Origin: a bacterium
Lineage (GTDB): Bacteria; Verrucomicrobiota; Lentisphaeria; Victivallales; GWF2-38-69
Reading direction: 5' to 3'
DNA: 64,000 bases
Assembly (NCBI GenBank): GCA_021781705.1
Contig: JAJXWI010000008.1
Location: forward strand, 179-64,178
The position numbers and the translations under genes are program-made. The notes below the pieces were generated by a model. It searched no databases. It had not been told where the DNA came from and was given only the letters and a program-made list of their open reading frames with translations. Positions within the stretch are counted from its first letter, which is position 1, and every line of letters starts with the position of its first letter. Of the stretch, positions 4,843-33,877 are shown in pieces.

Positions 4843-4863
4843 ATTTATTTGGCATAATATCTA

Positions 4864-5580: not shown

Positions 5581-5584
5581 TTTT

Positions 5585-6031: not shown

Positions 6032-6312
6032 GATATGAGTTATTCCTTAATATGGGCTTTTCTTCGGGCCTAATATTGACAGGCATCACAACTGAAAAAA
6101 CTATCCACTCTCACCAGATAAAACCCGATTTTGTATTCAGAAAAATAACATGACCGATCTAGACGTAGTCGAAGACTTTGCAAAGTTAACGATCTGTAAT
6201 ATAATTTAACGATCGGTTATGAGATGTCATGCGGAAAGATTAACTCTTTAAACTAAAGGAGATGCTATGAACAATTTTCAACAAACCCAGAAGCAGCTTT
6301 CATTTAAGATTT

Positions 6313-8499: not shown

Positions 8500-8585
8500 G
8501 ACTATACAGTTCGCTGGTAAAATCAATAAATTCGAGTATTTTTGTAAAGAGTTAAAATTCAATATTAGTAGTAAGGATACGAATA

Positions 8586-10304: not shown

Positions 10305-10332
10305 TTAGTTGGCGTCCAACATCAAATATTTA

Positions 10333-11025
10333 TCAATCTTTAATAAGTCCGTTACTGTACATCCTTTTAGCAAGATAGACTACTGGGGTGTTAATTATCG
10401 AGACAATGATGGAAGTAATGTAAGAAGTGATAGATAATTCCAATAAATAATTGAATGTAAGCAGGCCATAAAAAGCTACAATAGTAAAAATAGCATTGTC
10501 AAAAATTGCAGCTATTGTTGTACTCAAGTTATTTCTGCCCCATATGTATTTGTTCTTTGTTGCTTTCTTTAGTAACAAGTATATAAACGCAGCGATGGCA
10601 TGTGAAATATAATAAGCAGTGAAACTGGCAATTATTATTCTTGGAAGAAGATTAAAAATTCTGCTTAAAGCGGTATAGTTGCTTATCGATGAAGCTTCCT
10701 GAATAACAGAAAAATTAACCGCTAAAATCATATTAACAGTAAAAAAGATCAGAGCGATAGTGCTTATTATGATAGCTTTTTTAGCTGCTTCTTTCCCATG
10801 GTTTTCGCAGATTATGTCTATAACAAGGTAGGTGGCTCCGTACGTGACATTCCCTAGCGTGGTAGTTATCCCTAAAATATTTACTTGTAACAGAGTCTGC
10901 AAATTCGATAAAATTGTTAGTAGCGACAGTAAAACAACAAGTCCAATTTTACCAAAAAATCTATACGTCACTGCCACAGAAACAGGTATAGTCATCAGAG
11001 TTATTAACCAAAGAGTTGTATTCAT
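10333..11025 (-). CDS. YhhQ/VUT-family membrane transporter (queuosine-precursor transporter family)
   Basis: 230 aa, about 6 TM segments. The motif context ...ATYLVIDIICENHGKEAAKK... resembles the YhhQ (DUF165) family. Assignment is from memory of the family pattern. Confidence 0.6.
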   Translation of the reverse strand: MNTTLWLITLMTIPVSVAVTYRFFGKIGLVVLLSLLTILSNLQTLLQVNILGITTTLGNVTYGATYLVIDIICENHGKEAAKKAIIISTIALIFFTVNMILAVNFSVIQEASSISNYTALSRIFNLLPRIIIASFTAYYISHAIAAFIYLLLKKATKNKYIWGRNNLSTTIAAIFDNAIFTIVAFYGLLTFNYLLELSITSYITSIIVSIINTPVVYLAKRMYSNGLIKD

Positions 11026-11738
11026 AATAAGATATTGTTGTCCAGAAAAATTTCTATTCTGTCATTTCCCTGCAGGTTTTGAATCGCGTATTCTTTAAAC
11101 CACCGAATGAGTGAGTAATCAATACCAATTTTTGTTGTGTTCTTGCAGAACACATTTATCGTGATTTTTTTAAAATGGGCAAGTCCCTCATCTATGTCAT
11201 TAATAATATCTTTTTTACTTTGCCCCTCTATCCCAACAATAAGACATGTGGAATAATAGACTTCTTCTATATCATGAATTAGAGAGTTATAAATCTTTTT
11301 ACCAAGTACATTTACACGAAATTCTTCGTTAAATGTTTCCAATCCAACTCGAAACCGCAGAGTTATTCCATTTTTCAGAAACAATGATTTTAGGGTGGGG
11401 ATTTTTTTCATGTACCCTGGAAATGATTCAAAATAAATTGTACTTATATTTTTTTTGATAGCAAGATTCATTATTTCATTGATAGTGCTCGATGGGAGTT
11501 CAAATACTGAACCGGAATTTATAACCTCCAATAGTCCAAACTTACCAGAAACATTAGATAAAACTTCTTTGTTAAACGATATGATTTCATCCGGCTTTAG
11601 CCCAACGTTGTCAAGATAATAATCGCAAAATTTACAGTGACGCCGATGACAGCAGGGATTGGCTTTTAAAAGAACCATTTCCCTCTTTTCTGCATTTAAA
11701 ATATTGTCTTGGTCATCTATAGTTATATATCTCTTCAT
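11022..11738 (-). CDS. Radical-SAM-like protein with atypical CX4CX2C cluster motif
   Basis: 238 aa. Cys cluster NPCCHRRHCKFCDYY near the N-terminus, followed by TIM-barrel-like alternating pattern (GLLEVINSGSVFE, RFRVGLETFNEEFR). Its stop overlaps the start of the YhhQ-like gene by 4 nt. Confidence 0.5.
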   Translation of the reverse strand: MKRYITIDDQDNILNAEKREMVLLKANPCCHRRHCKFCDYYLDNVGLKPDEIISFNKEVLSNVSGKFGLLEVINSGSVFELPSSTINEIMNLAIKKNISTIYFESFPGYMKKIPTLKSLFLKNGITLRFRVGLETFNEEFRVNVLGKKIYNSLIHDIEEVYYSTCLIVGIEGQSKKDIINDIDEGLAHFKKITINVFCKNTTKIGIDYSLIRWFKEYAIQNLQGNDRIEIFLDNNILL

Positions 11739-11931
11739 GTGATAGAATAGACATCTAAATTGCTTACTTTTTTAGTATTATCTAACTAAAAGTTTATAGT
11801 TTTCTGATTTTAGGGTTGTTTATTATAGACAACTTGAAGACCTCAAATATATCGCAGTCGATCAAACTTTGAGAAACTGTACGATCCGGAAAAATGCTAA
11901 CAAATATTGGAGTTAAACTAAGGTATAACCT

Positions 11932-13113
11932 ATGCTGCCTGATTATGATGTAATAATTATTGGCGGGGGGCCGGGCGGGGCCTCCGCAGGAATTGTATTG
12001 TCCGAAAGCGGATTAAAAACCCTGATTGCCGACGAGTGCAATTTTCCCAGAGAGAAGGTTTGCGGAGACGGACTTACCGGAGATTCCATTCGCAATCTAA
12101 AATATCTTGGGGCGTGGAGAGATGTTTTAAATGCAGGGCACAGAATGGGAAAAATTGAATTTTTCCCCTTTCCCGAACAATCTTTTACGATCAACGCTGA
12201 AATAGTTACATTTGAAAGAAAAGTTCTGGACGATATCCTTCTTAAAAAAGCACTGAAAAATAATGTTAATTTTGAACAGTTGCTGTTTACTGGAAAGCAT
12301 GAAATCAGAAACGCTCTTATTTTTTTGGAATTCACAAAAAAAGACACAAATGAGAAAAGAATTATCTCCTGCACTTATGCTGTTATCGCGACGGGTTGTC
12401 AGAAATTAAACGTGCTGAAAACCATTTCTAACGGAAAAATAAATAAACCTGATCTTGCAGCGGTACGAGGATATTACAAGGGAGATTTCCCAATAACCCA
12501 TCCTATGGTCTATTTTGATGAAAGATTGAAAAATGGGTATGCGTGGATATTTCCGATGGGTAGAGGTTTTTTTAATATAGGGTGCGGGGTTAAAACAAAA
12601 ATTGCATCTTCCATAAATCTGCAGCTTCTGCTTAAAGAATTTGTTGATGAAATTAATGAAAAATATGGAGTAGCTCAAGGTGTCTGGAAAGAAAAACCTA
12701 AAGGTGCAGTGCTGTCTAGCGGCATGAAAAATTATAGACATTTGAAGCTGAAAAATACATTTTTTGTAGGAGAAACTATAGGGTCAACTTATTCTTATAC
12801 CGGAGAAGGCATCGGAAAAGCCCTCGAAACTGGGATAAATGCCGCTCATACGATTCTTAATTTTTATAAAAAAAAGAAGGATATAGGAAAAGTTTATAGA
12901 AAAATATTAAGAAAAGAATTATTTCCCCGCTATCGTCCATATTTCTGGGCAGATAAACTATTTACATCCCCTCTGAAAAACTACTTTTACCGTAAAATCT
13001 GCGTAAGTAAAAGGCTTCAGAATGTTATTGCCGGCATACTTACAGAGCGGATTAGATTTGAAGAAGTGTTATCTGTCAAGAAACTCTACACTAAGCTATT
13101 CTGGAAACGCTGA
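11932..13113 (+). CDS. FAD-dependent oxidoreductase, geranylgeranyl-reductase family
   Basis: N-terminal dinucleotide-binding motif YDVIIIGGGPGGASAG and a CGDGL motif. 393 aa, typical for the family. Confidence 0.75.
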   Translation: MLPDYDVIIIGGGPGGASAGIVLSESGLKTLIADECNFPREKVCGDGLTGDSIRNLKYLGAWRDVLNAGHRMGKIEFFPFPEQSFTINAEIVTFERKVLDDILLKKALKNNVNFEQLLFTGKHEIRNALIFLEFTKKDTNEKRIISCTYAVIATGCQKLNVLKTISNGKINKPDLAAVRGYYKGDFPITHPMVYFDERLKNGYAWIFPMGRGFFNIGCGVKTKIASSINLQLLLKEFVDEINEKYGVAQGVWKEKPKGAVLSSGMKNYRHLKLKNTFFVGETIGSTYSYTGEGIGKALETGINAAHTILNFYKKKKDIGKVYRKILRKELFPRYRPYFWADKLFTSPLKNYFYRKICVSKRLQNVIAGILTERIRFEEVLSVKKLYTKLFWKR

Positions 13114-13155
13114 AGATTTTTCTAACTGCGAAATACTTTAAAAATCGGAATAATA

Positions 13156-14406
13156 ATGAAAAACAGAGGATTTTATACAACTATATTGACTTCAGTCGGC
13201 GCAGGGCTTGAGTATTATGATTTTACAATATACGCCATGCTTGCTCCTTTTATCGGACTGAATTTCTTTCCGTCAACAAATTCATTTGCTACGCTGATAA
13301 ACACATTTTGCGTTTTTGCTGTTGGTTATCTTGTAAGGCCGCTAGGCGGCGTGATTTTTGGTCATTACGGAGATAAGCACGGAAGAAAAAAAATGCTCAT
13401 TTTTGTAATGGCCTTGATGGCGGGCTCCACCCTATTAATGGGGGTTCTTCCTAATGTTAATGCTACAGGGTATTATATTGGGCTTGTTTTTGTGATATGC
13501 CGCCTAGCTCAGGGAATCTCTTTTGGTGCGGAAATGCCATGTTCTTTGACTTTTATTTCAGAACATGCCGGAAAATCCTACAGAGGAATGAATTGCGGGA
13601 TAATGGCATCTTTTGTCACTATAGGAGTACTTCTGGGATGCTTTGTTGTTTATCTCCTTTCTGTGAACCTGACTAAAAATCAGATGTTTGCGTGGGGGTG
13701 GAGAATTCCTTTTATTTTAGGAGGTTTTCTGGCTGTAGTTGCGTATTTTGTACGGGAAAAAACATCAGAAACAAGATATTTCAAGAACAAAGATAATTGC
13801 TGCGAGTATCCTGTAAGGACATTGTTTGTAAGAAATTTTAGCGGGGTAGTTAAAGGCATAGGAATCGTATTGTTCCCAAGTTGTTTTATTCTGTTTTTTC
13901 TTGCCATACCTGCCTATCTTATAGATATATTTGGGTTTGCCGCACCGGATATATATTTTTCAACGATGGTTTCTTATGGCCTTACAATTATTGCTTTACC
14001 CTTCTTTGGGTGGTTGTCGGATATTTTCGGGCGGAAAAAAATCCTGATAACCGTATTGCTTGTTTTTATCTTATTCGGAGGTCTTTTATTTGAACTGTTG
14101 CATGTCGGCAATAACTCTTCCCTATTGTTGTTTATGTTGGGATATCAGCTTATTATATCTGCAATGGCGGGGTGCTATTATCCTCTGCTTTCGGAACTTT
14201 TCCCAACGAATGTACGCTACAGTGGCGTCGCGGTAGCATATAACTTTACGTACGCAGCAGCCTCTTTCACACCGATAGCAGTAAGTTTTATTTTTAAGAC
14301 ATTTAATAATATTTACAGCATTTCGGCTTTTTTTATCGTCATTGCTGTTATATCGTTAATTTCATGTTTCTTTATAACAGAATGTGCAGGAAAGGTTTTG
14401 GACTGA
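13156..14406 (+). CDS. MFS transporter (metabolite:H+ symporter-like)
   Basis: 416 aa, about 12 TM segments. MFS motif A-like GHYGDKHGRKKML between TM2 and TM3. Confidence 0.8.
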   Translation: MKNRGFYTTILTSVGAGLEYYDFTIYAMLAPFIGLNFFPSTNSFATLINTFCVFAVGYLVRPLGGVIFGHYGDKHGRKKMLIFVMALMAGSTLLMGVLPNVNATGYYIGLVFVICRLAQGISFGAEMPCSLTFISEHAGKSYRGMNCGIMASFVTIGVLLGCFVVYLLSVNLTKNQMFAWGWRIPFILGGFLAVVAYFVREKTSETRYFKNKDNCCEYPVRTLFVRNFSGVVKGIGIVLFPSCFILFFLAIPAYLIDIFGFAAPDIYFSTMVSYGLTIIALPFFGWLSDIFGRKKILITVLLVFILFGGLLFELLHVGNNSSLLLFMLGYQLIISAMAGCYYPLLSELFPTNVRYSGVAVAYNFTYAAASFTPIAVSFIFKTFNNIYSISAFFIVIAVISLISCFFITECAGKVLD

Positions 14407-14415
14407 AAAAACATA

Positions 14416-15876
14416 ATGAACGATGCCATGTTAAAATGTATCGGATGTAACATCGTATACACCATTGAAACAAAAAAACCTGTTTACGCCTGTGAAAATC
14501 GTGGGAATGGGGTTTTCACCCATATTTTAGAAAAAATACTTCCGGACGAATTTTCTTTTGATATAAGAACACTTTTGGATCTTTCCCCAAATTCCACCAA
14601 TCCCTATTTATTGTTCAGAAAATTTTTCTACAGTTATTATATTGCGAAAAAGCTAAAAATTGATTTCAAATCACTTGTAACGGAAATAAACGATAGATTG
14701 AAAGCCGGCGGAGAACCTGGCTTCGAAATGACCCCTTTTCTGGTAAAAGATAATATTTCCGGTATCCCCGGAAGAACTTTGATAAAAAACGAAACATGTA
14801 ATGTTTCAGGCTCCCACAAAGCAAGACATTTAATGGGGAATGTTATTTATCTTGAAGTTTTAAATAAGGCAGCCATTATTCAAAAAAGGCCAAAACTTGC
14901 GATATACAGCTGTGGGAATGCCGCATTAGGCGCAGCAGCCGTAGCAAAGGCAGCAGGATATAAACTGGATGTATTTGTTCCTCTAAATGTAAATCCAAGA
15001 GTGATTCAAAAACTCAATTATTACGGAGCAAGCGTAGTCGCGTGCCCAAGAATCTCAGGAGAATCAGGAGACCCTTGTTATAACAGATTTCAAGAAGCTC
15101 TAGCTTCAGGCTCAGTTCCTTTCTCTTGTTCCGGTCCCGATAATTGGTCAAATATAGAGGGAGGGCAAACCCTTTGTCTGGAACTTATAGCCCAGGCAAG
15201 CCTGATAAAACAAAAAATAGACGCAATAGTAATTCAGGTCGGCGGCGGAGCATTGGCTAGCTCAGCCGTAAAAACTATTGAGGAAGTGTATTGGGCAGGC
15301 TCAATAGATACGATGCCGGTAATACACACAGTTCAAACAGAAGGCGGATATCCGTTGGTAAGAACGTATCTTATTATGCTAAAAGAAATCGCAATAAAAA
15401 ATAATATGGAATGCTCCCTAACCATAGATGATTCTGATGAACCAATTTTAAGAAATCAGGCATTTCTGAAATACTTAAATAACAATTTACAGGAAATTTT
15501 GAAAATAGCTGAATTCTGCAAGGCTAATTATACCACAGATAAGGTACAGAATATTTTCAGGGACTGCGCACAGAACATGAAGAAATATATGTGGGCCTGG
15601 GAGGGAGAGCCTCATAGCATAGCTCATGGAATACTTGACGATACCACATATGACTGGTTTAAGATTATGCAAGGGATGTTTCGTTCCGGAGGCATTCCAA
15701 TAACAGTTACGGAGCAGGAATTAAAAGACGCCAACACTCTGGCTAAAAAAATCACAAAAATAAATGTAGACCATACTGGCTCATCAGGATTCTCCGGCTA
15801 CATAAAGCTCAAAAATCTGGGTATTATTTCAAAAACAGCGTCTACTGCTGTTTTTTTTACTGGAATTGAAAGATAG
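14416..15876 (+). CDS. PLP-dependent enzyme, tryptophan-synthase-beta fold (threonine-synthase-like), with N-terminal Cys-rich segment
   Basis: 486 aa. Candidate PLP-lysine context NVSGSHKARH and glycine loop QVGGGALASS. The N-terminus has CIGC...C. Confidence 0.6.
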   Translation: MNDAMLKCIGCNIVYTIETKKPVYACENRGNGVFTHILEKILPDEFSFDIRTLLDLSPNSTNPYLLFRKFFYSYYIAKKLKIDFKSLVTEINDRLKAGGEPGFEMTPFLVKDNISGIPGRTLIKNETCNVSGSHKARHLMGNVIYLEVLNKAAIIQKRPKLAIYSCGNAALGAAAVAKAAGYKLDVFVPLNVNPRVIQKLNYYGASVVACPRISGESGDPCYNRFQEALASGSVPFSCSGPDNWSNIEGGQTLCLELIAQASLIKQKIDAIVIQVGGGALASSAVKTIEEVYWAGSIDTMPVIHTVQTEGGYPLVRTYLIMLKEIAIKNNMECSLTIDDSDEPILRNQAFLKYLNNNLQEILKIAEFCKANYTTDKVQNIFRDCAQNMKKYMWAWEGEPHSIAHGILDDTTYDWFKIMQGMFRSGGIPITVTEQELKDANTLAKKITKINVDHTGSSGFSGYIKLKNLGIISKTASTAVFFTGIER

Positions 15877-15948
15877 TTTTAACTTAAAAAATGGGAGACC
15901 TTAACAAATTTCATTCCCCGTGACATCGAACGCAAGTCTGACGTCATG

Positions 15949-17943
15949 CTAGGCGTCGTATTCCTGTTTTGATCCATTGTAATTTGATGTGTCAAAAGTA
16001 TTTTCTGGAATATATTCTATCATAAGTTGGCGTAAAGCTTTTCCGTCATTTTCTAAAACAAGTTTCTCCAATAATGAAATATCAATCTTAGGCTGCTTTG
16101 GTGCGGTTTTTGACTTTTTCATTACCCAGATTTTTTCATAAGGAGTCTTTGCGATATTTTCATCTTCTGTCATTACCTCTTCGTACTCTTTTTCTCCAGG
16201 ACGCAGACCTGTATATTCTATCTTAATATCTTGATCTGGGATAAGTCCTGAGAGTTCTATAAGCTTACGAGCCATATCGGCTATCACGACTGGCTCACCC
16301 ATTTCTAGGACCATAGTTTCTCCACGTTGTCCAATTGCACCAGCCTGTAAAACAAGATCTACAGCCTCAGGTATTGTCATAAAAAACCTTCTAATATTTG
16401 GGCTGGTCACTGTTACCGGACCTCCATTTTTTATTTGCTCTTTAAATAGAGGAATGACACTTCCGCTACTGCCAAGGACATTACCAAAACGAACCGCTAC
16501 AAAAATCGTTTTACTGTTTTTCCCATTACAAATTATTTGTTCAGCAATTCGTTTGCTTGCCCCCATGACACTGCTGGGACGCACGGCCTTATCAGTCGAT
16601 ATCATAACAAACCGTTTCACATTGCATTGTTGCGCTACTTTGGATAAACGGTAAGTTCCTATTATATTATTTCTGACGCATGCGGGAATATTTTCTTCCA
16701 TAAGCGGCACATGCTTATAGGCGGCCGCATGATACAGTAGATCCACCCCATCTACAAAATTTATAGCTGCTTCTACCTCCTCTTCATGGCGGATATCTCC
16801 GGCAAAAGGAATTACACAAAGATCAGGATAAGATATTTTCAATTCCTGCTCTATTTTATATAGGGAGAACTCGTTTGTTTCAAAAAGAATAATTGAGGAA
16901 GGATGATATTTTGCAGTTTGCCTGCACAGTTCTGATCCTATACTGCCGCCAGCTCCTGTTATCATGACCTTTTTGCCAATAAGTGAATTTAAAACTACAT
17001 CTCGGTCAAATTTTTTTTCTCCCCTTCCAAGAAGATCTTCCAGTTCAACATCCTTTATGCACGAAATTGAGAACCCTCCGGATACCAAGTCCGACAATGA
17101 AGGAATTGTGTGGAATTGGCAAGCCACTTTTTGACGAGAACAACTCTCGACAATGACATTCATTTGTGCCGGTTTATTAAAAGGAGGAAGAATCAGCACA
17201 TAATTGGCATCTCTTTTTTTAATAATACTTCCTACCTTATCTACGTCTGCATAATATACTGGTGATCCGTGAAGCCTCATATTGTGTTCGAGATAATTAT
17301 CAGTAATAATGCCAACAAAACGTCCTATATTTTTTATTCTGTTGCTGCGAATAATTAGATCGCAATCATGTAGAACACCAATAATAATTACTCTATTTCC
17401 ATGACTTTCGGAATTATAATTATTCTTATTGAGGCATCTTTCACGCAAGATCCGGATAAGATACCTTCCCCCTCCGGCCCACAAGGACAAGAAAACAATT
17501 TCCATAAGCAAAATAGAGCGTGAAAGTTGGGAAAAATCTTCCCTGAATATTAAAAATACTAAAAACAGGAATAAAACAACAGTTCCCAATGAAGCTAATA
17601 ATATTTCAGGGACATCATCTATGCTGAAATACGCCCAAATTCCGGAATGCAATTTAAAAATAGCAAAGACAAATACACAACAGGTGCACAATATCGGCAG
17701 GGTTCGAAAAAATATTTCTAGTTGAGGAGAAGGAATAGAAGCATCAAATTTAAGAAGAAATGCTAAAACATATGTAACTGCACATCCCAATACGTGCCAA
17801 AGGATAATTAAAAGGCGTCGCATTAGTGAATGTTTGATGATATTTTTTTTAAAACCATTGAGATTTCTGCTCAAAAAATATAAAAAGCTTTCTTTTAAAA
17901 AAAATGGCTTAGTCATAAATGCAATCCATAAAACAATATTCAA
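15949..17943 (-). CDS. Polysaccharide biosynthesis protein CapD/PglF/WbpM-type (membrane-anchored NDP-sugar 4,6-dehydratase)
   Basis: 664 aa. N-terminal TM segments, Rossmann motif VMITGAGGSIGSEL, SDR catalytic region STDKAV...ASKR and AAYKHVP. Confidence 0.85.
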   Translation of the reverse strand: MNIVLWIAFMTKPFFLKESFLYFLSRNLNGFKKNIIKHSLMRRLLIILWHVLGCAVTYVLAFLLKFDASIPSPQLEIFFRTLPILCTCCVFVFAIFKLHSGIWAYFSIDDVPEILLASLGTVVLFLFLVFLIFREDFSQLSRSILLMEIVFLSLWAGGGRYLIRILRERCLNKNNYNSESHGNRVIIIGVLHDCDLIIRSNRIKNIGRFVGIITDNYLEHNMRLHGSPVYYADVDKVGSIIKKRDANYVLILPPFNKPAQMNVIVESCSRQKVACQFHTIPSLSDLVSGGFSISCIKDVELEDLLGRGEKKFDRDVVLNSLIGKKVMITGAGGSIGSELCRQTAKYHPSSIILFETNEFSLYKIEQELKISYPDLCVIPFAGDIRHEEEVEAAINFVDGVDLLYHAAAYKHVPLMEENIPACVRNNIIGTYRLSKVAQQCNVKRFVMISTDKAVRPSSVMGASKRIAEQIICNGKNSKTIFVAVRFGNVLGSSGSVIPLFKEQIKNGGPVTVTSPNIRRFFMTIPEAVDLVLQAGAIGQRGETMVLEMGEPVVIADMARKLIELSGLIPDQDIKIEYTGLRPGEKEYEEVMTEDENIAKTPYEKIWVMKKSKTAPKQPKIDISLLEKLVLENDGKALRQLMIEYIPENTFDTSNYNGSKQEYDA

Positions 17944-18710
17944 TATATAAGTTTACTGTCATAATCTACATCGTATTCGTATAAAGAAAAGCAGATATGC
18001 TTTTCTTTAAATTCTTTTATTAGTTTTAAAGGGAATCTTGTTTTTCTTTCTTTAAAAAAGTTTTTAAAATCATTGTCAGATTTTTCTACAAGCACAAAAG
18101 TCTTAATTCCCTTTCTTTCTATAGTACTCAACGCGTAATCCAAGCTTTTAAGATCTTTGTCTAAAATAGATTCAAAAGTAAAACATTCTACTCCTGCATG
18201 GTACGCAATCCTCGCACAATCTTTTGTTTCGTCAAAAATAAGAAGCGTTTTCTTTTCTGAATTTCTTATTATTTGTATAATTTCTTTTAGATAACTTTTA
18301 TAATCAGGCGAGCTTAGCGCTTTGCCGATACATGATACACCAATTATTAAAATCAGAAAGATTTTTATGCGAGTGATAGTAAGTACCGGGATTTTTTTTG
18401 AAATATATTTTTGTAGAAATTCTCCCATTTCCGAAAAACCAATTACTGAAAATATAATAAAGAAAAGGGTAAGAGTATAGAGGTAACGAGCATTATATTT
18501 TGCATCCATATGCATGTAAAATAAAACACGAAAAAGCAATGTTATCAGAAAAAATATTAGAATAAACCTGAATATACTATTTAAAGGGATTTGCCTATAA
18601 TTCAGGACTGCAAATAGAACCAAAATAAAAATAACAGGGAATGCAGAATCTAGAAAGACAAGATTTAGGAAATTTAAGAACATATTTCTATTTTGTAAAG
18701 ATTGAATCAA
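17940..18710 (-). CDS. Membrane protein, possible C-terminal part of a GT-C glycosyltransferase
   Basis: 256-aa ORF: about 5 TM segments followed by a ~120-aa soluble tail. The first ATG (18683) lies 4 nt after the stop of the upstream GT-C-like ORF. Confidence 0.5.
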   Translation of the reverse strand: MIQSLQNRNMFLNFLNLVFLDSAFPVIFILVLFAVLNYRQIPLNSIFRFILIFFLITLLFRVLFYMHMDAKYNARYLYTLTLFFIIFSVIGFSEMGEFLQKYISKKIPVLTITRIKIFLILIIGVSCIGKALSSPDYKSYLKEIIQIIRNSEKKTLLIFDETKDCARIAYHAGVECFTFESILDKDLKSLDYALSTIERKGIKTFVLVEKSDNDFKNFFKERKTRFPLKLIKEFKEKHICFSLYEYDVDYDSKLIY

Positions 18711-19515
18711 TGATTGAGTTAACTATAGAAAAAAAGGGGCTTGTGTATCTATTTTGGCACAAAGAAAAAGAATAATAAACGAACAAATTTAACGATAAAA
18801 AAATAGCTAAAACAAAAAAGAGAGAGCAAGAGTAGTATTTGATATCTATAATAGTTGCTGGGGAATGAGTGATGGCGAATGGATGATTATGTTTGCCAAC
18901 AAATTTAATAACAATCTCGACAAAAACCCATATTAAAAAAATTATAATAAATTCATACCCTTCGTATCTGGCAAAGCAGGCCAATGTCACGACAAAAGAA
19001 AACAGGCTCCATTTAACTACAGACCTATTCTTTATTGCTGCAACAGCACAGACTAGAGCGATAGCTATCAATGGAATATATAAACTATCTCTAAGGCACC
19101 TTACGCTTATTCTGACTAAAGATGGATGAATAGCGCCGAAAAATGCTGCGAGTAAAGCTAAATCCGCCCTTTTAAGTAAAGTTTTTACTATATAAAACAT
19201 GCAAAATGGAATCAAGGAACCTAACATAATGCCAAAAAAAATTCCTGTAATTTCAGGTTGAATTCCTAACTTGTATCCCAAACTCATTAGAAAGGGCAAT
19301 AAGGGAGGAATCGTTTGTAGGCAATTTGAATACGTATAATTGGCTCCATAGTTAGCCCAATTAATAGCCATGTTAAAATAGATATAACAATCGACGTCAT
19401 ATCTATTCATTTCTATGGCTCTTATGATTCTTAGCACAATACCCAACAAAACGATAAGTATAAGTGATGCGGCTTTGTTCTTTGCTATATTTTTTAGGAT
19501 ATGGATAAAATCCAT
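18688..19515 (-). CDS. GT-C-fold glycosyltransferase-like membrane protein (ArnT/PMT_2-like N-terminal part)
   Basis: 275 aa and polytopic. The N-terminal pattern (...LILIVLLGIVLRIIRA...D...Y...A...) is typical of ArnT/PMT-like GT-C enzymes, but the ORF is only about half the usual length. Confidence 0.5.
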   Translation of the reverse strand: MDFIHILKNIAKNKAASLILIVLLGIVLRIIRAIEMNRYDVDCYIYFNMAINWANYGANYTYSNCLQTIPPLLPFLMSLGYKLGIQPEITGIFFGIMLGSLIPFCMFYIVKTLLKRADLALLAAFFGAIHPSLVRISVRCLRDSLYIPLIAIALVCAVAAIKNRSVVKWSLFSFVVTLACFARYEGYEFIIIFLIWVFVEIVIKFVGKHNHPFAITHSPATIIDIKYYSCSLFFVLAIFLSLNLFVYYSFSLCQNRYTSPFFSIVNSIIDSIFTK

Positions 19516-19530
19516 GTTTTTTAAAACCTT

Positions 19531-20322
19531 TTAGTTTGTTAAAATAAGAGTTGCCTCAATTGTCATGGCTCCATCAGGGGGTGGAGGCAATTTGTCTATT
19601 GTGCTAAGCATCCGTTTTACAGAATCGTCCATTTCTGCGAAATTGCTATTTTTTATAATCTGGTAGTCCATAAGCCTGCCATCTCTTCCTATATTGAGTC
19701 TAACCAACACAGAAGGGGGGGCTCCTGATACTGCAAGCTTCGAGGGCTGTTCCCACCTTTCATATAAAAGAGAAGATATTGAGTCATAATAGGTTAGCAT
19801 GGCGGGATTTGCCTGAGCTGTACCGCTTGCCCCAAACTTCACGCTGCTCAAACTGTTTTTGAGATTTGCAGCCAATGCCGAAGCACTTACTCCTTGAACA
19901 GAATTTGTTGCGGTTGTATGCGCTACGGGTTTAAACTCCTTTATCTGGGTTTCCGTAGGCTTTGTTATTTGAGTTATATCAAGAGGCTTCCATGTTTTTT
20001 TTGCAGGAACTTTCTGAACTGATTTTGCTTCTTTTTGCTTTGCATTTTCTGTTTTTTTCTTTTGTTTTTGCGCCTGAGTTTGAGTCTGAGTTTGAGTCTG
20101 AAGAGATGATGAAGCTACCATTGCGCTCATTTCCTGATACGCTGCTGAACTTGTTAAACTAACGGTTATTGCCTGTGGCGCAGTCTTCCAAAAAAAGTTT
20201 TGGATAATTCCGGATAAATAAAGAACAAGAATAAAAGCTACATGAATAGCACCCACATACAGCATAGTTTTTTGAGACACTATGCCGTCACTTTGCTGTT
20301 CAAATTTAAGCTTCAGATACAT
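19531..20322 (-). CDS. TonB-family energy transducer
   Basis: 263 aa: N-terminal TM anchor, low-complexity QTQTQTQAQKQKKK linker, and a C-terminal TonB_C-like domain (VLVRLNIGRDGRLMDYQIIKNSN...). Confidence 0.7.
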   Translation of the reverse strand: MYLKLKFEQQSDGIVSQKTMLYVGAIHVAFILVLYLSGIIQNFFWKTAPQAITVSLTSSAAYQEMSAMVASSSLQTQTQTQTQAQKQKKKTENAKQKEAKSVQKVPAKKTWKPLDITQITKPTETQIKEFKPVAHTTATNSVQGVSASALAANLKNSLSSVKFGASGTAQANPAMLTYYDSISSLLYERWEQPSKLAVSGAPPSVLVRLNIGRDGRLMDYQIIKNSNFAEMDDSVKRMLSTIDKLPPPPDGAMTIEATLILTN

Positions 20323-20471
20323 AAAAACAGTTTCAGGTTTTTAAGGCTTGAAGGCCTCATTTTATAAAAAATCAATAATAATTATCAATAAAATTGTAGA
20401 AAAATCCTGTCTAACATTTAATGTAGGATTTGTTTTTTTCAATCATATAACATTATAAAGAGGAATTTATT

Positions 20472-20861
20472 GTGAGGGGAGCGTGTTTGGGAGGTAGTTT
20501 ATTATGCGTACTATTAATAACATCATGCTGTTGTCTAATGAAAGCTAATGGTAATTTTACACAAAAGGATTCAGGGACCGCCTTTAATTCTTCAAAAGGT
20601 AGTTTTATAGAAATAGCACTAAAAGGGAACCCTACTACTGGTTACACGTGGAATATAGCCGAATACGATCAAGAAATACTTAAATTGGAAGGTTCAACAT
20701 TTGTGCGAGATTCTGATTTGGCAGGAGCAGGAGGAGTTGAGATCTTTAAATTTTCAGTCATAGGTAAAGGTAAAACTACTTTGGTTATTCAATACAATCG
20801 GGTGTGGGAAAAAGATGTGAAGCCCATAGAAGTATTTAAACTTACCATCAATTCTAAGTAA
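20472..20861 (+). CDS. Chagasin-family cysteine-protease inhibitor (MEROPS I42), secreted/lipoprotein
   Basis: 129 aa with a signal-like N-terminus. The hallmark motif GNPTTGYTWNI is present, along with GAGGVEIFKF and the C-terminal YNRVWEK pattern. Confidence 0.85.
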   Translation: MRGACLGGSLLCVLLITSCCCLMKANGNFTQKDSGTAFNSSKGSFIEIALKGNPTTGYTWNIAEYDQEILKLEGSTFVRDSDLAGAGGVEIFKFSVIGKGKTTLVIQYNRVWEKDVKPIEVFKLTINSK

Positions 20862-20899
20862 ATTAAAATTTATTATAATAGTTTTTAAGGAAAGCTTAC

Positions 20900-22696
20900 A
20901 TGCCTAGGAAATACCATATTGCAAACATTATAGGGGTAACATTGTTTTTAATATCATTTGTTTCTTTTAGTAGTGATGTGGCTGCTAAACAAGAGACATC
21001 TAGATCCGCAGACGCAAATCCCAAAGATTCAACGTCAACTTTCGAAGGCACCTCTGGAGCAGTAGCCGAAACTTCTAAATATTCAGGTCCAATTGTTGTT
21101 GGAAGCGATTTCTTTGTAAAGGAGGGGAAGAAATTTCTAAATTTAAGCGGAGCAGACATCGCAGTACAGCCTGATTATATTTTAAAAACTGCCGATGTCC
21201 TAGTTGTTGATATTTGGGGAGATTTGGATTTACATTATTCTCTAAATATAAATAAGGACGGCTCAATTGTTATACCCAACGTAGGCAGGGTTGACCTTCA
21301 AGGGCTTTCTTTTGAACAGGGGAAAAAGAAAATACTTAATAAATTGGCCGATACATATGGGTTCTACATTGATAAGAATGATCCTGGTGCTGGCAAAGCA
21401 CACTTGGATATAACATTAGGGAAAATTTCCGGAGTAAAAGTCTACCTTTCCGGAGAAGTTGTTCATCCCGGCGTAGTAATGCTAAACGGCGCTAATTCAT
21501 CAGTTATTGCCGCAATAGCTGCAGGCGAAGGACTCAAAAATACAGGAAGCGTAAGGAATATTCAAATTACACATGCGGATAACATTAAATCAGTGTTTGA
21601 TTTATACGATTTTCTATTCAAAGGAAAATTATCACCGGAAAATAAATATTTAAAGGATGGAGATATCGTATATGTACCTCCCATGAAATATAAGGCTTAT
21701 GCTCTAGGAGCTTTAACAAATCCTGGAACTTACGAAATAAACTCTGAGGAAACTCTAGCTTCGTTGATAGGCATTGCAGGAGGCTTTAGCAGTTTTTCTT
21801 CAGGAAAAATTGCTATTTCAAATGCAAGTAACGATATCTATGACAAAGAAAAGCGGAAAGCAGAAAGGCAAGAATATTTTTCAAAGGTAGAAAATTGTAA
21901 GGTTGGGGATAACGATATTATTCTTGCAAAAGAGCAATTAAGTCAAAAGCCGTATAGCTATATCGAAATTACCGGCAAAGGCGCTAGATATAATGGAAAA
22001 CTCCGTTTCGAAAATGGATTAACAATTAAAGACTATATCAATAGGGCTGGAGGCTTATACCGTGACGCTTATAAAACTATTATTCTCCAATCCACAAATG
22101 AAGACGGAGCTACTTCCTTCAATGCATTAGAAACCTTCACGGATAAAGATAAAAATACTCGACTTTTACCTGGGGATAAACTAATAATAGAAGATTCTGA
22201 CACTTTTTATAATAGCAATTTTGCTTTTATCTGTGGCTACTTCGAGCATCCACAGATGATGAAAATTACAGGTAATGAAAAGATTTCTGACCTTGTAAAA
22301 ATTGGCAACCCAAAAAGTACTGCTAGCATTGAAAGCGCATCATTTACACATAATGGGAAGAGGATATTTTTTGATCTGCAAAAAATCATTGACAATCCAA
22401 GTTTAGGAATGAATATTAATGTTGGGATGCACGATATGTTATTTGTGCCAAAATCTGAACCGTATATTGAAGTTTCAGGAGGTGTATTGTCTCCAGGCTT
22501 TTATCCATATTCAAAAGGTCAGACAGCTAAATATTATATTGATCTAGCTGGAGGATTTTCTGATAATGCGGATAAGTATAACACTATATTAATTGAGGGT
22601 ACAGGACATTCAATTAATGGATATTCATGGTGTTTGTGGTTTGCTGATCCTAACGTAAAGAATGGAACAAAAATAGAAGTTCCTGTAAAGGGATAA
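20900..22696 (+). CDS. Polysaccharide export protein (Wza-like; Poly_export + SLBB domains)
   Basis: 598 aa. Poly_export-like segment DVLVVDIWGD...INKDGSIVIPNVGRVDLQGLSFEQ and repeated SLBB-like LKDGDIVYVP / LLPGDKLII motifs. Confidence 0.8.
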   Translation: MPRKYHIANIIGVTLFLISFVSFSSDVAAKQETSRSADANPKDSTSTFEGTSGAVAETSKYSGPIVVGSDFFVKEGKKFLNLSGADIAVQPDYILKTADVLVVDIWGDLDLHYSLNINKDGSIVIPNVGRVDLQGLSFEQGKKKILNKLADTYGFYIDKNDPGAGKAHLDITLGKISGVKVYLSGEVVHPGVVMLNGANSSVIAAIAAGEGLKNTGSVRNIQITHADNIKSVFDLYDFLFKGKLSPENKYLKDGDIVYVPPMKYKAYALGALTNPGTYEINSEETLASLIGIAGGFSSFSSGKIAISNASNDIYDKEKRKAERQEYFSKVENCKVGDNDIILAKEQLSQKPYSYIEITGKGARYNGKLRFENGLTIKDYINRAGGLYRDAYKTIILQSTNEDGATSFNALETFTDKDKNTRLLPGDKLIIEDSDTFYNSNFAFICGYFEHPQMMKITGNEKISDLVKIGNPKSTASIESASFTHNGKRIFFDLQKIIDNPSLGMNINVGMHDMLFVPKSEPYIEVSGGVLSPGFYPYSKGQTAKYYIDLAGGFSDNADKYNTILIEGTGHSINGYSWCLWFADPNVKNGTKIEVPVKG

Positions 22697-28948: not shown

Positions 28949-30331
28949 TTAAGTTAAATGACTTAATGGAGTTTTCCCTATAGGAAATACGTTAAAACCC
29001 ATTTCAAACAGAGCTTCATGATCTAGAATATTTCTGCCGTCAAAGATAAAAGCTGGCTTGGTCATCAATCCTAAGATTTTTGCATAATCGTAAGATTTAA
29101 ATTCTTTCCATTCAGTCAATATCAATATTGCATGGGCATCTTTTGCTGCCTCGTACGGACAGTTGCAGTACTCAATAAGCGACTGGTCCAAGTCAGCAAG
29201 ATCGTGTTTTGCCTCCTTCATGGCTTTAGGGTCATATATCGCAAGTCTTGCTTTTTCTTCGTGTAGCATTTTTGACACATAAATCGCCGGAGATTCTCTC
29301 GTATCTCCAGTGTCTGCTTTGAACGCAAACCCGAATATCGCTATTTTTTTATCCGCGACGGTATTAAACATATTTTCAAGAACTCTCATCACGAATCGGT
29401 TTTGCTGATAATCGTTCATTTTGACAACCTGTTCCCAATATTCAGCGACTTCGGGAAGATTGTAGTGCTCACACAAGTAAACAAGATTCAGGATATCTTT
29501 TTTGAAACAGGATCCGCCAAACCCTACGCTGGCATTCAAAAACTTAGAACCGATTCTTGAGTCAGATCTTATGGCTCTTGAAACTTCTGTAATATTTGCG
29601 TGTGTTTTTTCGCAGAAAGCGGAAATACTGTTTATTGAAGAAACTCTTTGTGCGAGCATTGCGTTTGCGACTAGTTTAGACAGTTCGCTGCTCCAAAGAT
29701 TAGTTGTAATAATATTTTCTTTGGAAACCCAATGCGCATACACATCTACCAGGGCTTGAACGGCAGCTTTTCCAGATGGTGTTTCCATTCCCCCAATCAA
29801 TACTCTATCTGGCTTCTCAAGATCGCTAATAGCCGTGCCTTCAGCAAGAAACTCTGGGTTGGAAAGGACTTCAAATCTGAGCCCCTTTGTGTTAGAGTGA
29901 AGAATTTTTCCCATGGCATCGGCGGCTCTTACGGGAAGCGTGCTTTTTTCTACAACGATTTTATCATCTTCTGAATATGTCAAAATGCTTCTTGCTGTCT
30001 TTTCCCAATACTGCAGGTTTGAGGCTTTCCCTCTTCCGTGTCCAAACATTTTAGTGGGAGTGTTTACGCTTACAAAAATAATATATGCTTCTTTTATTGA
30101 ACTTGTTACATCCGTAGTGAAGAAAAGGTTCTTTCCTCTTGCTGCTTTTACTACTTCATCAAGCCCCGGCTCAAAAATAGGAAGATCATCAGAGTTCCAT
30201 TCCGCTATTCTCTGCGGATTTATATCAGCTACAATAACCTTGTAATCAGGACACTTTTTAGCTATCATAGCCATGGTTGGTCCGCCTACATATCCTGCCC
30301 CTATACACAATATTGTTTTCTTATTAGACAT
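28949..30331 (-). CDS. ugd: UDP-glucose 6-dehydrogenase (long, eukaryote-like form)
   Basis: 460 aa. N-terminal GAGYVGGPT Rossmann motif and catalytic-Cys motif [19 protein letters not shown]. Confidence 0.95.
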
Positions 30332-30550
30332 TATTTCCCTCTTTTTTTAAATTGTTTTCCAATTTTCGAATTTATAATTGATAAATTGTTTTAATATAAT
30401 CAGGCTGAACACTCAGTTATAGCTGACGGGATAAAATTTTTGACGAATTTACTTGTTTTTATGCAAATTGAATTAATTTTGAAGCTGGCAGCATAATTCA
30501 TTTCTGATTCGCTTTAATGTGCCTTAGACGCCCCCTCCGCAAATATTCAC

Positions 30551-30637
30551 TAACGCTTTCCACGGGCTCACGCCCGTGGCTAGAGCATAAATATAATAGA
30601 CATATTACCCATGGATGTTAGCCCGCTGGAAGCGTTA
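30551..30637. other. GC-rich structured non-coding segment with two mutually exclusive pairings
   Basis: There is a perfect 8-bp hairpin CCACGGGC-TCAC-GCCCGTGG (30560-30579). The same 5' strand, extended to TAACGCTTTCCACGGGC (30551-30567), can instead pair with GCCCGCTGGAAGCGTTA (30621-30637; 10+5 bp around a 2x2 loop). It lies in the 548-nt gap between ugd and the 409-aa gene. Confidence 0.35.
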
Positions 30638-30712
30638 CCACATAAAAATCAAACCCTCATGCAGGGAGTGGCGATACTTTAAGTTTTTCGACAACACATT
30701 TCTCTGAAAAAT

Positions 30713-30731
30713 CTATGTGGCATCACATTAG
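30713..30731. repeat. Left copy of imperfect direct repeat CTATRTGGCATSACATTAG flanking the 409-aa gene
   Basis: CTATGTGGCATCACATTAG (30713-30731) matches CTATATGGCATGACATTAG (32449-32467) at 17 of 19 positions. Both copies are followed by an A-rich TAAAAACA stretch. Confidence 0.5.
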
Positions 30732-30879
30732 AGGGCATCTAAAAACAGGTAATTTTATAATAATAGTTGCTTATCTGACAAGTTTGTTTTTAGCCTTCTT
30801 TCTTAATATTGGAGCAGATTGACTTTAACTCTTTTGCTGTATAATAACTCTTTGGGAGAAAATAACAAAAGGAGAAAAA

Positions 30880-32109
30880 ATGCATCCTTCCAGAGAGGGA
30901 AATACATTTACAAAGTTTAAAAATGTGGTTGAGACTGTAATCAGAGAAATAGATTCTCTCGACAACGAGTATGTTTTGAAAGCATCACCGACAGAACTCG
31001 AACAATACTTCACAGAGAAGGTTCTGATCAAACCTTTGGTGCTCCACGAGGATAAGCAGTACATAAAAGATCAAACCGGCACTCAGATAGATGTAAGCCA
31101 TGATTTCAACAGAGTTGTCTTCCCAGGCGAAAGAGCTATTATCAAAGGAACAAGGGTGGATATTGCAATTCCATTTGAAGGCGACCCTGGGCTTTGGAGT
31201 ATTCAAGCATCCACATCCAGTATGAGGAGTTATCCTGAAATAGAGATTCGGAACAACGAGGTGGTCTTTAGCGTTAGCTTTCCTGACGATTCCCCTGAAC
31301 CAGACAGACTTCGTTCCGATATCCAAAAACGAATAAAATCACTGGTAGACGCTGTTGCCTACCTGAAAAGAGATGTGGATAATCACAACAGCTCAGCACC
31401 CACAAGAATCAGGGAAGCTCTTTCCCGTAAAACATCACGAGCCCAATCGGCAGTTGAAGCAGTTGCAGCTTTAGGTATTCTTATAAAGAAGAAAGATACT
31501 GAGCCAACATTCGCAATCCCAGCTAAACGGCGGGAGAGTCCAGCTAAGCGCCCAGCGGTGACAACTGGCAAATATGAACCCGAGCCAATCCTTGCCGAAA
31601 AGGAATACCAGCACATACTGGAAGTGCTAAAAAGCATGTCTCTCGTCATTGAACGTAATCCCTCTTCATTCGCCTCTCTTGATGAAGAAGCTATTAGAGA
31701 CCACTTTCTTCTTCAACTGAACGGTCATTACGAGGGTAGTGCTACCGGAGAGACATTTAATGCTTCTGGCAAAACAGACATATTGATTAGAGTAGAGAAT
31801 AAGAACGTATTCATAGCGGAATGCAAATTCTGGCACGGATCTAAAACATTCGAAGATGCCATTGATCAACTCTTGGGTTACCTTTCGTGGCGTGATTCGA
31901 AGTGTGCGCTTCTCGTCTTCAACAAGACAAAGGATTCGAGCGCTGTCCGTCATAAAATGCATGAGGTCATGGAATCACGATCCCAGCATCGTAAGACAGT
32001 GTTCCATCGACCAGACGGAGACTCGCAATATGTCCTAATAAAAGATTCTGATCCGGGCCGAGAAATCTCTATAACAACTCAACTGTATGATATGCCGAGT
32101 AAGGAATGA
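30880..32109 (+). CDS. Hypothetical protein with C-terminal PD-(D/E)xK (RecB/Shedu-like) nuclease core
   Basis: 409 aa with a strong RBS (AAGGAG, 30869-30874). The C-terminal motif series is GKTD300-ILIRVENKNVFIA-E314-C-K316 followed by Q330-LLG-Y334 (D...ExK...QxxxY). The N-terminal 280 aa was not recognisable to me. Visibly higher G+C than neighbouring genes. Confidence 0.6.
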   Translation: MHPSREGNTFTKFKNVVETVIREIDSLDNEYVLKASPTELEQYFTEKVLIKPLVLHEDKQYIKDQTGTQIDVSHDFNRVVFPGERAIIKGTRVDIAIPFEGDPGLWSIQASTSSMRSYPEIEIRNNEVVFSVSFPDDSPEPDRLRSDIQKRIKSLVDAVAYLKRDVDNHNSSAPTRIREALSRKTSRAQSAVEAVAALGILIKKKDTEPTFAIPAKRRESPAKRPAVTTGKYEPEPILAEKEYQHILEVLKSMSLVIERNPSSFASLDEEAIRDHFLLQLNGHYEGSATGETFNASGKTDILIRVENKNVFIAECKFWHGSKTFEDAIDQLLGYLSWRDSKCALLVFNKTKDSSAVRHKMHEVMESRSQHRKTVFHRPDGDSQYVLIKDSDPGREISITTQLYDMPSKE

Positions 32110-32164
32110 GCACGCCCCCCATAACAAGAGGAACTAAATCGCTTTTTCTTTAGGATAAAAAGAA

Positions 32165-32305
32165 AAAGTAAATGAATTAACAAGCCGGCTCAAAAATGAT
32201 AATATTGAAATATTGGACGGGTCAAGAGAAACTGGAAATGGATGCTATGAAACAGCGTTCATTGCCCCGGAAGGAAATAGAATTGAAATAACATCTTATA
32301 AGTAA
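32165..32305 (+). pseudogene. Remnant of a glyoxalase/VOC-family gene (C-terminal ~47 codons only)
   Basis: The frame reads ...KVNELTSRLKNDNIEILDGSRETGNGCYETAFIAPEGNRIEITSYK*. This is the typical VOC C-terminal beta-strand motif (F.DPEGN.IEI). There is no start codon or N-terminal half, and an in-frame stop lies just upstream. Confidence 0.45.
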
Positions 32306-32448
32306 GCCGTTTTTCCAAACATGCAACTGGTTCTGAGTTAGTTTTTATATTGTAAAACAATCCGCAACTTGTCAATAAGCTTCCACTTAATGTGGCTCAG
32401 ACGTAAAACACAACCGAGACACGGCTGTGCTCCATTGCCAAGATCAAC

Positions 32449-32467
32449 CTATATGGCATGACATTAG
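32449..32467. repeat. Right copy of imperfect direct repeat CTATRTGGCATSACATTAG
   Basis: See the left copy at 30713-30731. This copy lies 133 nt upstream of the eno start; the left copy lies 149 nt upstream of the 409-aa gene start. Confidence 0.5.
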
Positions 32468-32572
32468 TATTAAAAAACAAAACCTCATTTTTATATTGAA
32501 TTATTGAATTTATTAGTTTTGAATTTAGTGTTAAGAGTTAGTTAGGTTTCGTATTTAACGAGTTAAATTTAG

Positions 32573-33877
<1,305 letters not shown>

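Follow-up and report, generated by a model that had tools for sequence, protein, structure and literature searches.

A PDC-S54 candidate defence gene between ugd and eno in an uncultured Victivallales bacterium, and its integron cassette relatives

A single gene between two core genes

The DNA analysed here, a stretch of 64,000 nucleotides (nt) of contig JAJXWI010000008.1 (assembly GCA_021781705.1; hereafter the window), belongs to an uncultured Victivallales (Lentisphaerota) bacterium and carries an open reading frame (ORF) of 409 amino acids at 30880-32109 on the + strand. The encoded protein matches the PADLOC candidate defence family PDC-S54 (PDLC05036) over nearly its whole length and is predicted to end in a nuclease domain, while in most other loci the gene is an integron cassette. 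The same locus, with an identical protein, is present in the sister assemblies GCA_027457625.1 and GCA_027452705.1; only such near-identical sister assemblies carry it, and the identity in the second assembly is 99.97%.

A Shine-Dalgarno sequence, AAGGAG (30869..30874, + strand), can be read 5 nt ahead of the ATG, and other carriers of the gene have an AGGAG-type ribosome binding site (RBS) at the equivalent position. From the sequence we infer a promoter-like element, TTGACT - 15 nt - TATAAT (30819..30845, + strand), which lies in host-specific DNA just upstream of the segment shared with other carriers and is a plausible sigma-70-like promoter of the gene; a consensus scan missed it because its spacer is 15 nt instead of 16-18 nt. 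The gene is flanked by a UDP-glucose/GDP-mannose dehydrogenase gene (ugd, 28949-30331, - strand) and by the enolase gene (eno, 32600-33877, + strand), with leuS, tkt, guaA, exbBD and recA beyond them. The initial annotation, made from the window sequence, had described a single ORF with an AAGGAG RBS between ugd and eno, and the coordinates agree with it on all of these points.

It had also described unusually long non-coding arms on both sides of the gene. Their lengths, 548 nt and 490 nt, are correct, but they rank 6th and 7th among the gaps between ORFs of at least 150 amino acids in the window and are therefore long without being exceptional. Nor is the downstream arm purely non-coding: a stop-free translation of 48 codons plus stop (32159..32305, + strand) resembles the C-terminal end of the glyoxalase/VOC family PF00903 (profile positions 79-121 of 121; E = 0.0095; 16.8 bits against a Pfam cut-off of 20.6). 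A truncated VOC gene beside the inserted gene has probably left this 3' remnant.

Family membership and distribution

Compared with PADLOC-DB, the protein has a sole match at E ≤ 10, to PDC-S54 (E = 6.4e-134, 445.5 bits), which spans amino acids 6-407 and profile positions 10-408 of 410. On this match we regard the gene as a member of a catalogued family and not as the discovery of a new system; the earlier suggestion of a possibly "new" defence gene has thus to be withdrawn, as PADLOC-DB already lists PDC-S54 as a candidate. The protein fits the profile over its full length, is a single-gene system like the rest of the family, and shows no difference in sequence that would set it apart. Pfam and NCBIfam gave zero matches even at E ≤ 10, PHROGs gave nothing significant, and the PDB sequence matches obtained with both profiles were only spurious ones to coiled-coil proteins, designed proteins or CesT. 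The phage defence candidates (PDCs) are a set of 145 families in PADLOC, selected because a member is embedded in a BREX, DISARM or type I restriction-modification (R-M) system (Payne et al., bioRxiv 10.1101/2024.01.29.577857).

The family is widespread. A word-indexed search found >2,800 homologues, the best 120 of which are 66-100% identical to the window protein, nearly all 408-411 amino acids long and without exception devoid of Pfam domains; the sources that have a name comprise, among others, Acidobacteriota, Deltaproteobacteria, Planctomycetota, Brocadiaceae, Marinobacter, Candidatus Thiodiazotropha and Desulfotignum. When representatives clustered at 50% identity were searched exhaustively with HMMER, 3,647 clusters passed E ≤ 1e-3 and 1,366 of them E ≤ 1e-30. 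More distant members (29-40% identity), all annotated "hypothetical protein", are encoded on 21 plasmids from Proteobacteria, Planctomycetes, Cyanobacteria, Actinobacteria, Spiroplasma, Deinococcus and one haloarchaeon. A family member was found in 2 of 50,697 phage records.

Proteins 67-88% identical to the window protein occur in at least six phyla, Acidobacteriota, Deltaproteobacteria, Planctomycetota and Gammaproteobacteria among them. Because proteins of 76-88% identity sit in unrelated phyla, horizontal transfer is indicated, and the horizontal acquisition first proposed is further borne out by nucleotide similarity that is confined to RBS and ORF. The composition of the gene says less. 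Its G+C content is 0.440, compared with a mean of 0.380 (standard deviation 0.033) for the 39 other ORFs (z = 1.8), but eno reaches 0.445 (ugd 0.400), so that raw G+C is no mark of foreign origin. The G+C at third codon positions (GC3) is 0.405 (rank 2 of 40 ORFs), the fit of synonymous codons to the rest of the window is the second worst of 40 (z = -2.19), and the length-corrected tetranucleotide distance is the second highest of 40 (z = +2.71). The gene is mildly atypical in composition and forms no clear foreign island. The description of the gene as compositionally foreign was partly right and overstated: the z-scores of codon and tetranucleotide usage are only about 2-3, and whereas GC3, codon and tetranucleotide usage do deviate mildly, G+C equals that of eno. 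In the closest cassette copies the gene has a G+C content of 0.47 on contigs of 0.45-0.49; the step from 0.47 to 0.44 fits amelioration towards a host of 0.38. Taken together, horizontal acquisition is supported by the distribution of the family more than by composition.

Predicted structure and catalytic motif

The structure was modelled with AlphaFold (AF2; model m8e0ef3035cf3) from an alignment of 121 sequences with 31-87% identity, which superseded a shallow alignment (67-87% identity) that had left amino acids 254-314 unmodelled. The model has a mean predicted local distance difference test (pLDDT) score of 89.2 and a predicted template modelling score (pTM) of 0.68, and only amino acids 206-220 fall below a pLDDT of 50. 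It divides the protein into two domains joined by a linker.

The N-terminal domain (amino acids 8-197; 30901..31470, + strand; pLDDT mostly 87-98) is predicted to be an alpha/beta domain of three helices (9-48) followed by a four-stranded antiparallel sheet (61-71, 87-100, 121-124, 127-135) and closed by a helix of 57 residues (141-197). It belongs to no known family, with no match in Pfam, NCBIfam or PDB sequences, and we propose that it may be a sensor or oligomerisation part. The initial annotation had found no relatives for the N-terminal ~280 amino acids; this lack of known relatives is confirmed, whereas the boundary has to be moved, as the predicted nuclease module begins at about amino acid 239. 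The basic linker between the domains (amino acids 198-238, ...PAKRRESPAKRPAV...YEPEP...; 31471..31593, + strand) is predicted to be disordered and is nevertheless conserved. All close relatives share P214, R217, R218, P221, P225, Y232, E235 and P236 without change, and in the wide alignment P236 still reaches a conservation of at least 90%. A segment that is predicted to be disordered and yet contains invariant residues has the appearance of a conserved linear motif.

The C-terminal domain (amino acids 239-409; 31594..32106, + strand) is assigned to the PD-(D/E)xK nucleases by its AF2 topology, by matches in BFVD, by Pfam hits in relatives and by its recurrence behind other N-termini. Helices span 240-283, including the first core helix, H269-283, which is followed by E292-299, E301-305, E308-317, H321-334 and E341-348, so that the model contains the alpha-beta-beta-beta-alpha-beta core of this fold; a helix (353-366) and three more strands follow the core. 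The candidate catalytic residues lie where the fold predicts them: E269 on the first core helix, D300 immediately ahead of the second strand, E314 and K316 on the third strand, and Q330 and Y334 on the helix H321-334 (codons at 31777, 31819, 31825, 31867 and 31879 for D300, E314, K316, Q330 and Y334; 31777..31881, + strand). These five residues are invariant in 51 close relatives. In the widest alignments (121 relatives, down to 31% identity), E258, E269, R273, E291, G297, D300, G320, Q330 and D339 remain invariant, and conservation is 90% or higher at E314, C315, K316 and Y334. Both the motif D300...E314-C-K316...Q330xxxY334 and the PD-(D/E)xK C-terminus that had been read from the sequence are thus upheld by conservation and by the predicted topology, and a restriction-endonuclease-like fold of this domain is probable.

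The closer affinity of the domain is less clear. In BFVD, local matches of high probability were obtained to a "restriction endonuclease type IV Mrr domain" protein (probability 0.99; template modelling score 0.45 on the target), an unnamed viral protein (0.99) and a "PD-(D/E)XK nuclease" (0.94), all with E ≥ 0.009. A fold search of the PDB gave the restriction enzyme OkrAI (probability 0.75) and nothing at E ≤ 1e-3. HSDR_N is the nuclease domain of type I R subunits; when 80 diverse members were compared with Pfam at E ≤ 1, it was matched by 11 of them (best E = 3e-4), pPIWI_RE_REase by five and DUF234 by three. Weak as they are, the fold and profile matches agree in pointing to restriction nucleases, Mrr and HsdR among them. 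The signals of subfamily are split: the QxxxY helix motif, seen more typically in RecB-like nucleases, points to that group, and the fold matches point to an Mrr- or HsdR-like nuclease. With RecB, AddB, Cas4 and lambda exonuclease the protein shares the ordered conserved D, ExK and QxxxY motifs, including motif IV of the RecB type (Q330 invariant, Y334 at least 90% conserved, both on H321-334). It differs from this group in having no PDDEXK_1 or Cas4 match in Pfam and no helicase partner; as C315 and C342 are its only cysteines, an iron-sulfur cluster of the four-cysteine Cas4/AddB type is excluded.

Relatives in integron cassettes

Compared by blastn with 12 other loci, the window gene shares a segment that comprises RBS and ORF (30866..32110, + strand): the alignments have 65-88% identity, start at 30866-30880 and end at 32096-32110, and neither arm is shared. 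Judged by these limits, 30866-32110 corresponds to the interior of an integron cassette found elsewhere. The boxes of attC sites, the recombination sites of cassettes, are known as R'' (RYYYAAC) and R' (GTTRRRY). Most of the other loci contain (G)GCTAAC...GTTAGGC or GTTAAGC 4-13 nt past the stop codon and GTTAGCC or GTTAGAC about 15-25 nt ahead of the ATG.

Three of these attC sites form hairpins with paired boxes and a bulged inner stem, and a consensus of five sites has an outer stem of 5 bp, an unpaired spacer and an inner stem of ~10 bp, with compensatory changes at five pairs. A covariance model was built from the five sites and iterated once. Sites that the model had not seen were found in L008 (E = 6e-5; our locus numbers are used throughout), where the site ends 15 nt before the ATG, in L172 after the next gene (E = 0.018) and in Marinobacter (L005) after the stop codon (E = 0.026); the iterated model added a further cassette boundary in L177 (E = 0.004). 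The two closest homologues, L178 and L179, have attC sites at E = 1e-6 to 6e-4. In L178 one attC directly follows the stop codon, and L179 (1-3375) holds four attC sites in 3.4 kb, each after an ORF, two of which bracket the PDC-S54 gene. The first cassette of L179 matches PDC-S36/PD-T4-1 (E = 9e-25), which makes two candidate defence cassettes in one array. Immediately upstream of the gene in L172, an ORF on the opposite strand encodes part of an integron integrase; it matches TIGR02249 (E = 8e-17) with a score that falls far short of the family cut-off.

Context was sampled at ten independent loci, in eight of which an attC directly follows the gene. Five of these eight provided the training data of the model, and for them the boxes and the fold are the evidence, not the model score. 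In most loci elsewhere, the gene is therefore a promoterless integron cassette (R' core, RBS, ORF, attC) placed in arrays and defence islands. Integron cassettes are known to carry phage defence systems, termed BRiCs, close homologues of which have been described outside integrons with the coding sequence kept and attC lacking (Kieffer et al. 2025, Darracq et al. 2025, Getz et al. 2025). PDC-S54 homologues resemble BRiCs in being cassettes with attC, in sharing arrays with other defence-type cassettes and in having copies outside integrons that lack attC, as the window copy does. They differ in that PDC-S54 is not among the BRiCs described in the texts searched, and in that BRiCs were described in Vibrio or Enterobacteria whereas the hosts of PDC-S54 belong to environmental phyla.

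Neighbours and modules of the family

The neighbouring genes differ among the ten loci, and many of them belong to mobile elements or defence systems (system names at these loci are PADLOC assignments). The Marinobacter gene (L005) is accompanied by two tyrosine recombinases, and the Acidobacteriota genes (L006/L007) by a conjugative element with TraG and AbiEii/AbiEi; Eco57I/XhoI R-M genes are found in Deltaproteobacteria (L008/L009), a PIN gene in L010, which lies beside alaS, and a HEPN gene together with a Druantia DruE helicase (E = 4e-145) in L174. In L179, the PDC-S36/PD-T4-1-like gene belongs to the same array. In L171, an Hma system (4673-21225) encloses genes over ~10 kb, with HmaA (E = 9e-162) on one side of them and HmaB (E = 5e-123) on the other. 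Besides the PDC-S54 homologue, this insert holds an NsnA/PD-T4-2-like GmrSD_N gene, a HEPN gene and several ORFs without Pfam match. This is embedding of the kind by which PDCs were defined, though in an Hma system; embedding in BREX, DISARM or type I R-M was not seen in the loci examined. The window copy, unlike this homologue, is neither embedded in nor adjacent to any known defence system.

No conserved partner gene accompanies the family: pairwise comparisons of downstream genes across the ten loci were not significant, and a pair of co-directional downstream genes in Marinobacter and in Acidobacteriota, considered as partners, proved mutually unrelated. Because neighbours differ and downstream genes are unrelated, the gene works or travels alone, in agreement with the single-gene module that had been proposed.

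The protein itself is modular. A C-terminal module with 61-67% identity to the window protein (amino acids ~215-408) recurs behind four unrelated N-termini, in P0142 (289 amino acids), P0170 (314), P0172 (378) and P0190 (344), with the junction in each just past the linker. Such an arrangement is expected of an effector that is kept while its regulatory or sensor parts are exchanged, and it suggests domain swapping at the linker.

Three independent loci (L008 11788-13362; L172 7808-9184; L177 496-1527) encode proteins with AlbA_2 (Schlafen-like) and/or HATPase_c_4 domains no more than 1-2 kb from the PDC-S54 gene. Two of these proteins have partial PADLOC matches to pAgo-associated models, and the one in L172 is a separate cassette with its own attC. 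The recurrence could be a true association, or both could simply be common cassettes.

The window copy as a probable stranded cassette

Nothing of the recombination machinery is recognisable around the window gene. Across all 64 kb of the window, the attC models detected no site at E ≤ 5, and an unfiltered scan of 29500-33500 peaked at 7.1 bits (E = 1.6). Integrase-like sequence is likewise absent from the window, and AAAATAA occupies the position at which the GTTRRRY core sits elsewhere. The most economical reading is that the window copy is a former cassette of which RBS and ORF are left and the recombination site is lost. Being without attC and integrase, it would be fixed in place and immobile by integron recombination. 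The landing of the cassette, or of an array fragment, between ugd and eno possibly truncated the VOC gene.

By eye, the first ~35 nt past the stop codon (TAACAAGAGGAA...ATCGCTT) resemble the attC sites of L178 and L179. As a vestigial attC this stretch was rejected, since its alignment does not score above shuffles (p = 0.2-0.25).

Interpretation and alternatives

We consider it probable that PDC-S54 proteins are stand-alone two-domain nucleases, effectors gated by a sensor, and that the window copy is a former cassette. Under this scheme the C-terminal domain would be a metal-dependent nuclease effector, which the N-terminal domain and the long helix would hold inactive and/or assemble into an oligomer until a cue of infection is sensed; the long helix is the likely oligomerisation element, and the conserved basic linker would share in the gating. 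The trigger would be some feature of invading DNA or of infection, upon which the nuclease would cut invading (or host) nucleic acid, be it DNA or RNA, and thereby restrict phage or other mobile DNA. The window copy would be transcribed from the local sigma-70-like promoter. From the contexts described above, defence is the best-supported role.

Several points weigh on the other side. PDCs were added to PADLOC explicitly as candidates without experimental test (Payne et al., bioRxiv 10.1101/2024.01.29.577857), and PDC-S54 is mentioned neither in the paper texts nor in the supplements of the defining preprint that were searched. The Pfam matches to nuclease domains are weak and come from a minority of family members. 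The window copy has no defence gene beside it, its flanks being core genes; the attC-like trace past its stop codon is not significant; and the direction from cassette to stranded gene rests on parsimony only, the reverse course, in which a chromosomal gene later became a cassette elsewhere, being possible.

Among the alternatives, the initial annotation had favoured a Shedu-like protein (SduA, DUF4263), and the two do resemble each other as single proteins of ~400 amino acids with a C-terminal PD-(D/E)xK nuclease, a variable N-terminal part and likely oligomerisation. Yet neither the DUF4263 model of Pfam nor the Shedu models of PADLOC match at E ≤ 10, DUF4263 is absent from the families matched by the 80 members, and Shedu has no described counterpart of the N-terminal fold, the long helix and the basic linker. 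The resemblance thus seems to be one of design, not demonstrated ancestry, and we hold membership in the Shedu family to be very improbable. An Mrr-like restriction enzyme of type IV, dependent on modification, whose N-terminal domain would read modified DNA for the C-terminal domain to cut, would suit the two-domain single-gene layout, and it is towards such enzymes that the best high-probability fold match and the recurrent weak Pfam matches to HsdR and other restriction endonuclease domains point. With the Mrr, HsdR-N and type II catalytic domains of the Pfam clan PDDEXK the protein has the core topology, the D...ExK motif and its best fold matches in common; it stays below the family thresholds, however, matching neither Mrr_cat nor Mrr_N, lacks a cognate methylase, a helicase and a known DNA-reader domain (no winged-helix or SRA-type reader is recognisable in the N-terminal domain), and carries the QxxxY helix motif expected rather of RecB-like nucleases, while the fold E-values are not significant. 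We regard this alternative as unlikely.

The role, as distinct from the fold, might also lie outside defence, the protein being a toxin or addiction module that stabilises cassette arrays and mobile elements, or a nuclease of their recombination or repair. The presence of the gene on integron arrays, integrative and conjugative elements, plasmids and islands is in keeping with such a role, as are the RecB-type motif IV and the fact, established in the literature, that toxin-antitoxin cassettes are common in integrons. A conserved partner or antitoxin gene is missing, though, and the repeated co-occurrence with bona fide defence genes, the embedding in Hma and the near absence from phages all speak against it, so that we judge a function outside defence improbable. 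Finally, the window copy could be a hitch-hiker that is silent or decaying and at present without function, as the loss of attC, the adjoining truncated VOC gene and the lack of defence genes nearby might suggest; but its ORF is intact, of full length and has kept every conserved residue, a strong RBS and a promoter-like site precede it, the locus is almost unchanged in the second assembly, and the shift in G+C from ~0.47 to 0.44 suggests long residence under selection. Decay is on these grounds distinctly unlikely.

A more far-reaching reading can be tentatively entertained, although we would not expect all of it to hold: PDC-S54 might be a mechanistically new single-protein immune nuclease, with an N-terminal sensor fold and a conserved disordered basic linker that have no known counterpart, and an unrecognised BRiC of sedentary integrons across many environmental phyla, from which the window copy escaped as a cassette, losing its attC and gaining a promoter of its own at a core locus. 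In that case the window copy would illustrate, in nature, how genes pass between integrons and the rest of the genome.

The analysis turns an orphan gene into a named member of a catalogued candidate defence family. With ~3,650 clusters at 50% identity this family is large; it is also strongly conserved from phylum to phylum and entirely uncharacterised, and a confident structural model and a clear catalytic hypothesis (D300, E314, K316) are now available for it. Most close relatives are integron cassettes, which broadens the recent view of integrons as banks of defence genes to environmental lineages, and the occurrence of the same gene with and without attC offers matched pairs for studying how cassettes enter and exit.

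Gene order and repeats around the locus

The neighbourhoods of ugd were compared at loci L011-L090. Neither the ugd-anchored search of 185,579 species genomes nor the eno-anchored search of JGI metagenomes revealed a relative with ugd beside eno, leuS or guaA. The closest species-level relative of ugd (88% identity), on a Victivallales chromosome, has none of leuS, eno and guaA nearby, and gene order around ugd is therefore not conserved even within the order.

The upstream arm contains a GC-rich imperfect palindrome, the inverted repeat I1 (30551..30637, no strand assigned), which includes the perfect hairpin CCACGGGC-TCAC-GCCCGTGG. The region around it (30545-30645) has a G+C content of 0.45 in an otherwise AT-rich arm, and its DNA fold has an energy of -17.5 kcal/mol (z = -3.9). 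Two identities were considered and rejected. A likeness to attC had been seen by eye, the + strand ending in GTTAGCC, but the attC model gave 5.6 bits (E = 3.5). The Acido-Lenti-1 motif is known from Lentisphaerae; as an instance of this RNA the palindrome scored 22.2 bits in Rfam, compared with a gathering score of 37.

Three short collinear blocks are common to the regions upstream of the window gene and of eno (30514-30530 / 32387-32403; 30713-30731 / 32449-32467; 30863-30879 / 32580-32596), one of which is an RBS block with nearly the same sequence in both places, CAAAAGGAGAAAAA. Outside loci of the same strain these blocks do not occur. A duplication of the eno upstream region ahead of the gene was rejected as marginal, as 27 of 500 dinucleotide shuffles reach the score and some reach the chain of three blocks. 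Lastly, followed by no T-run and unexceptional in its fold energy (z = -1.15), an AT-rich perfect hairpin of 10 bp, CTTTTTCTTT-aggataa-AAAGAAAAAG, lies 33 nt past the stop codon of the gene, at 32142-32168.

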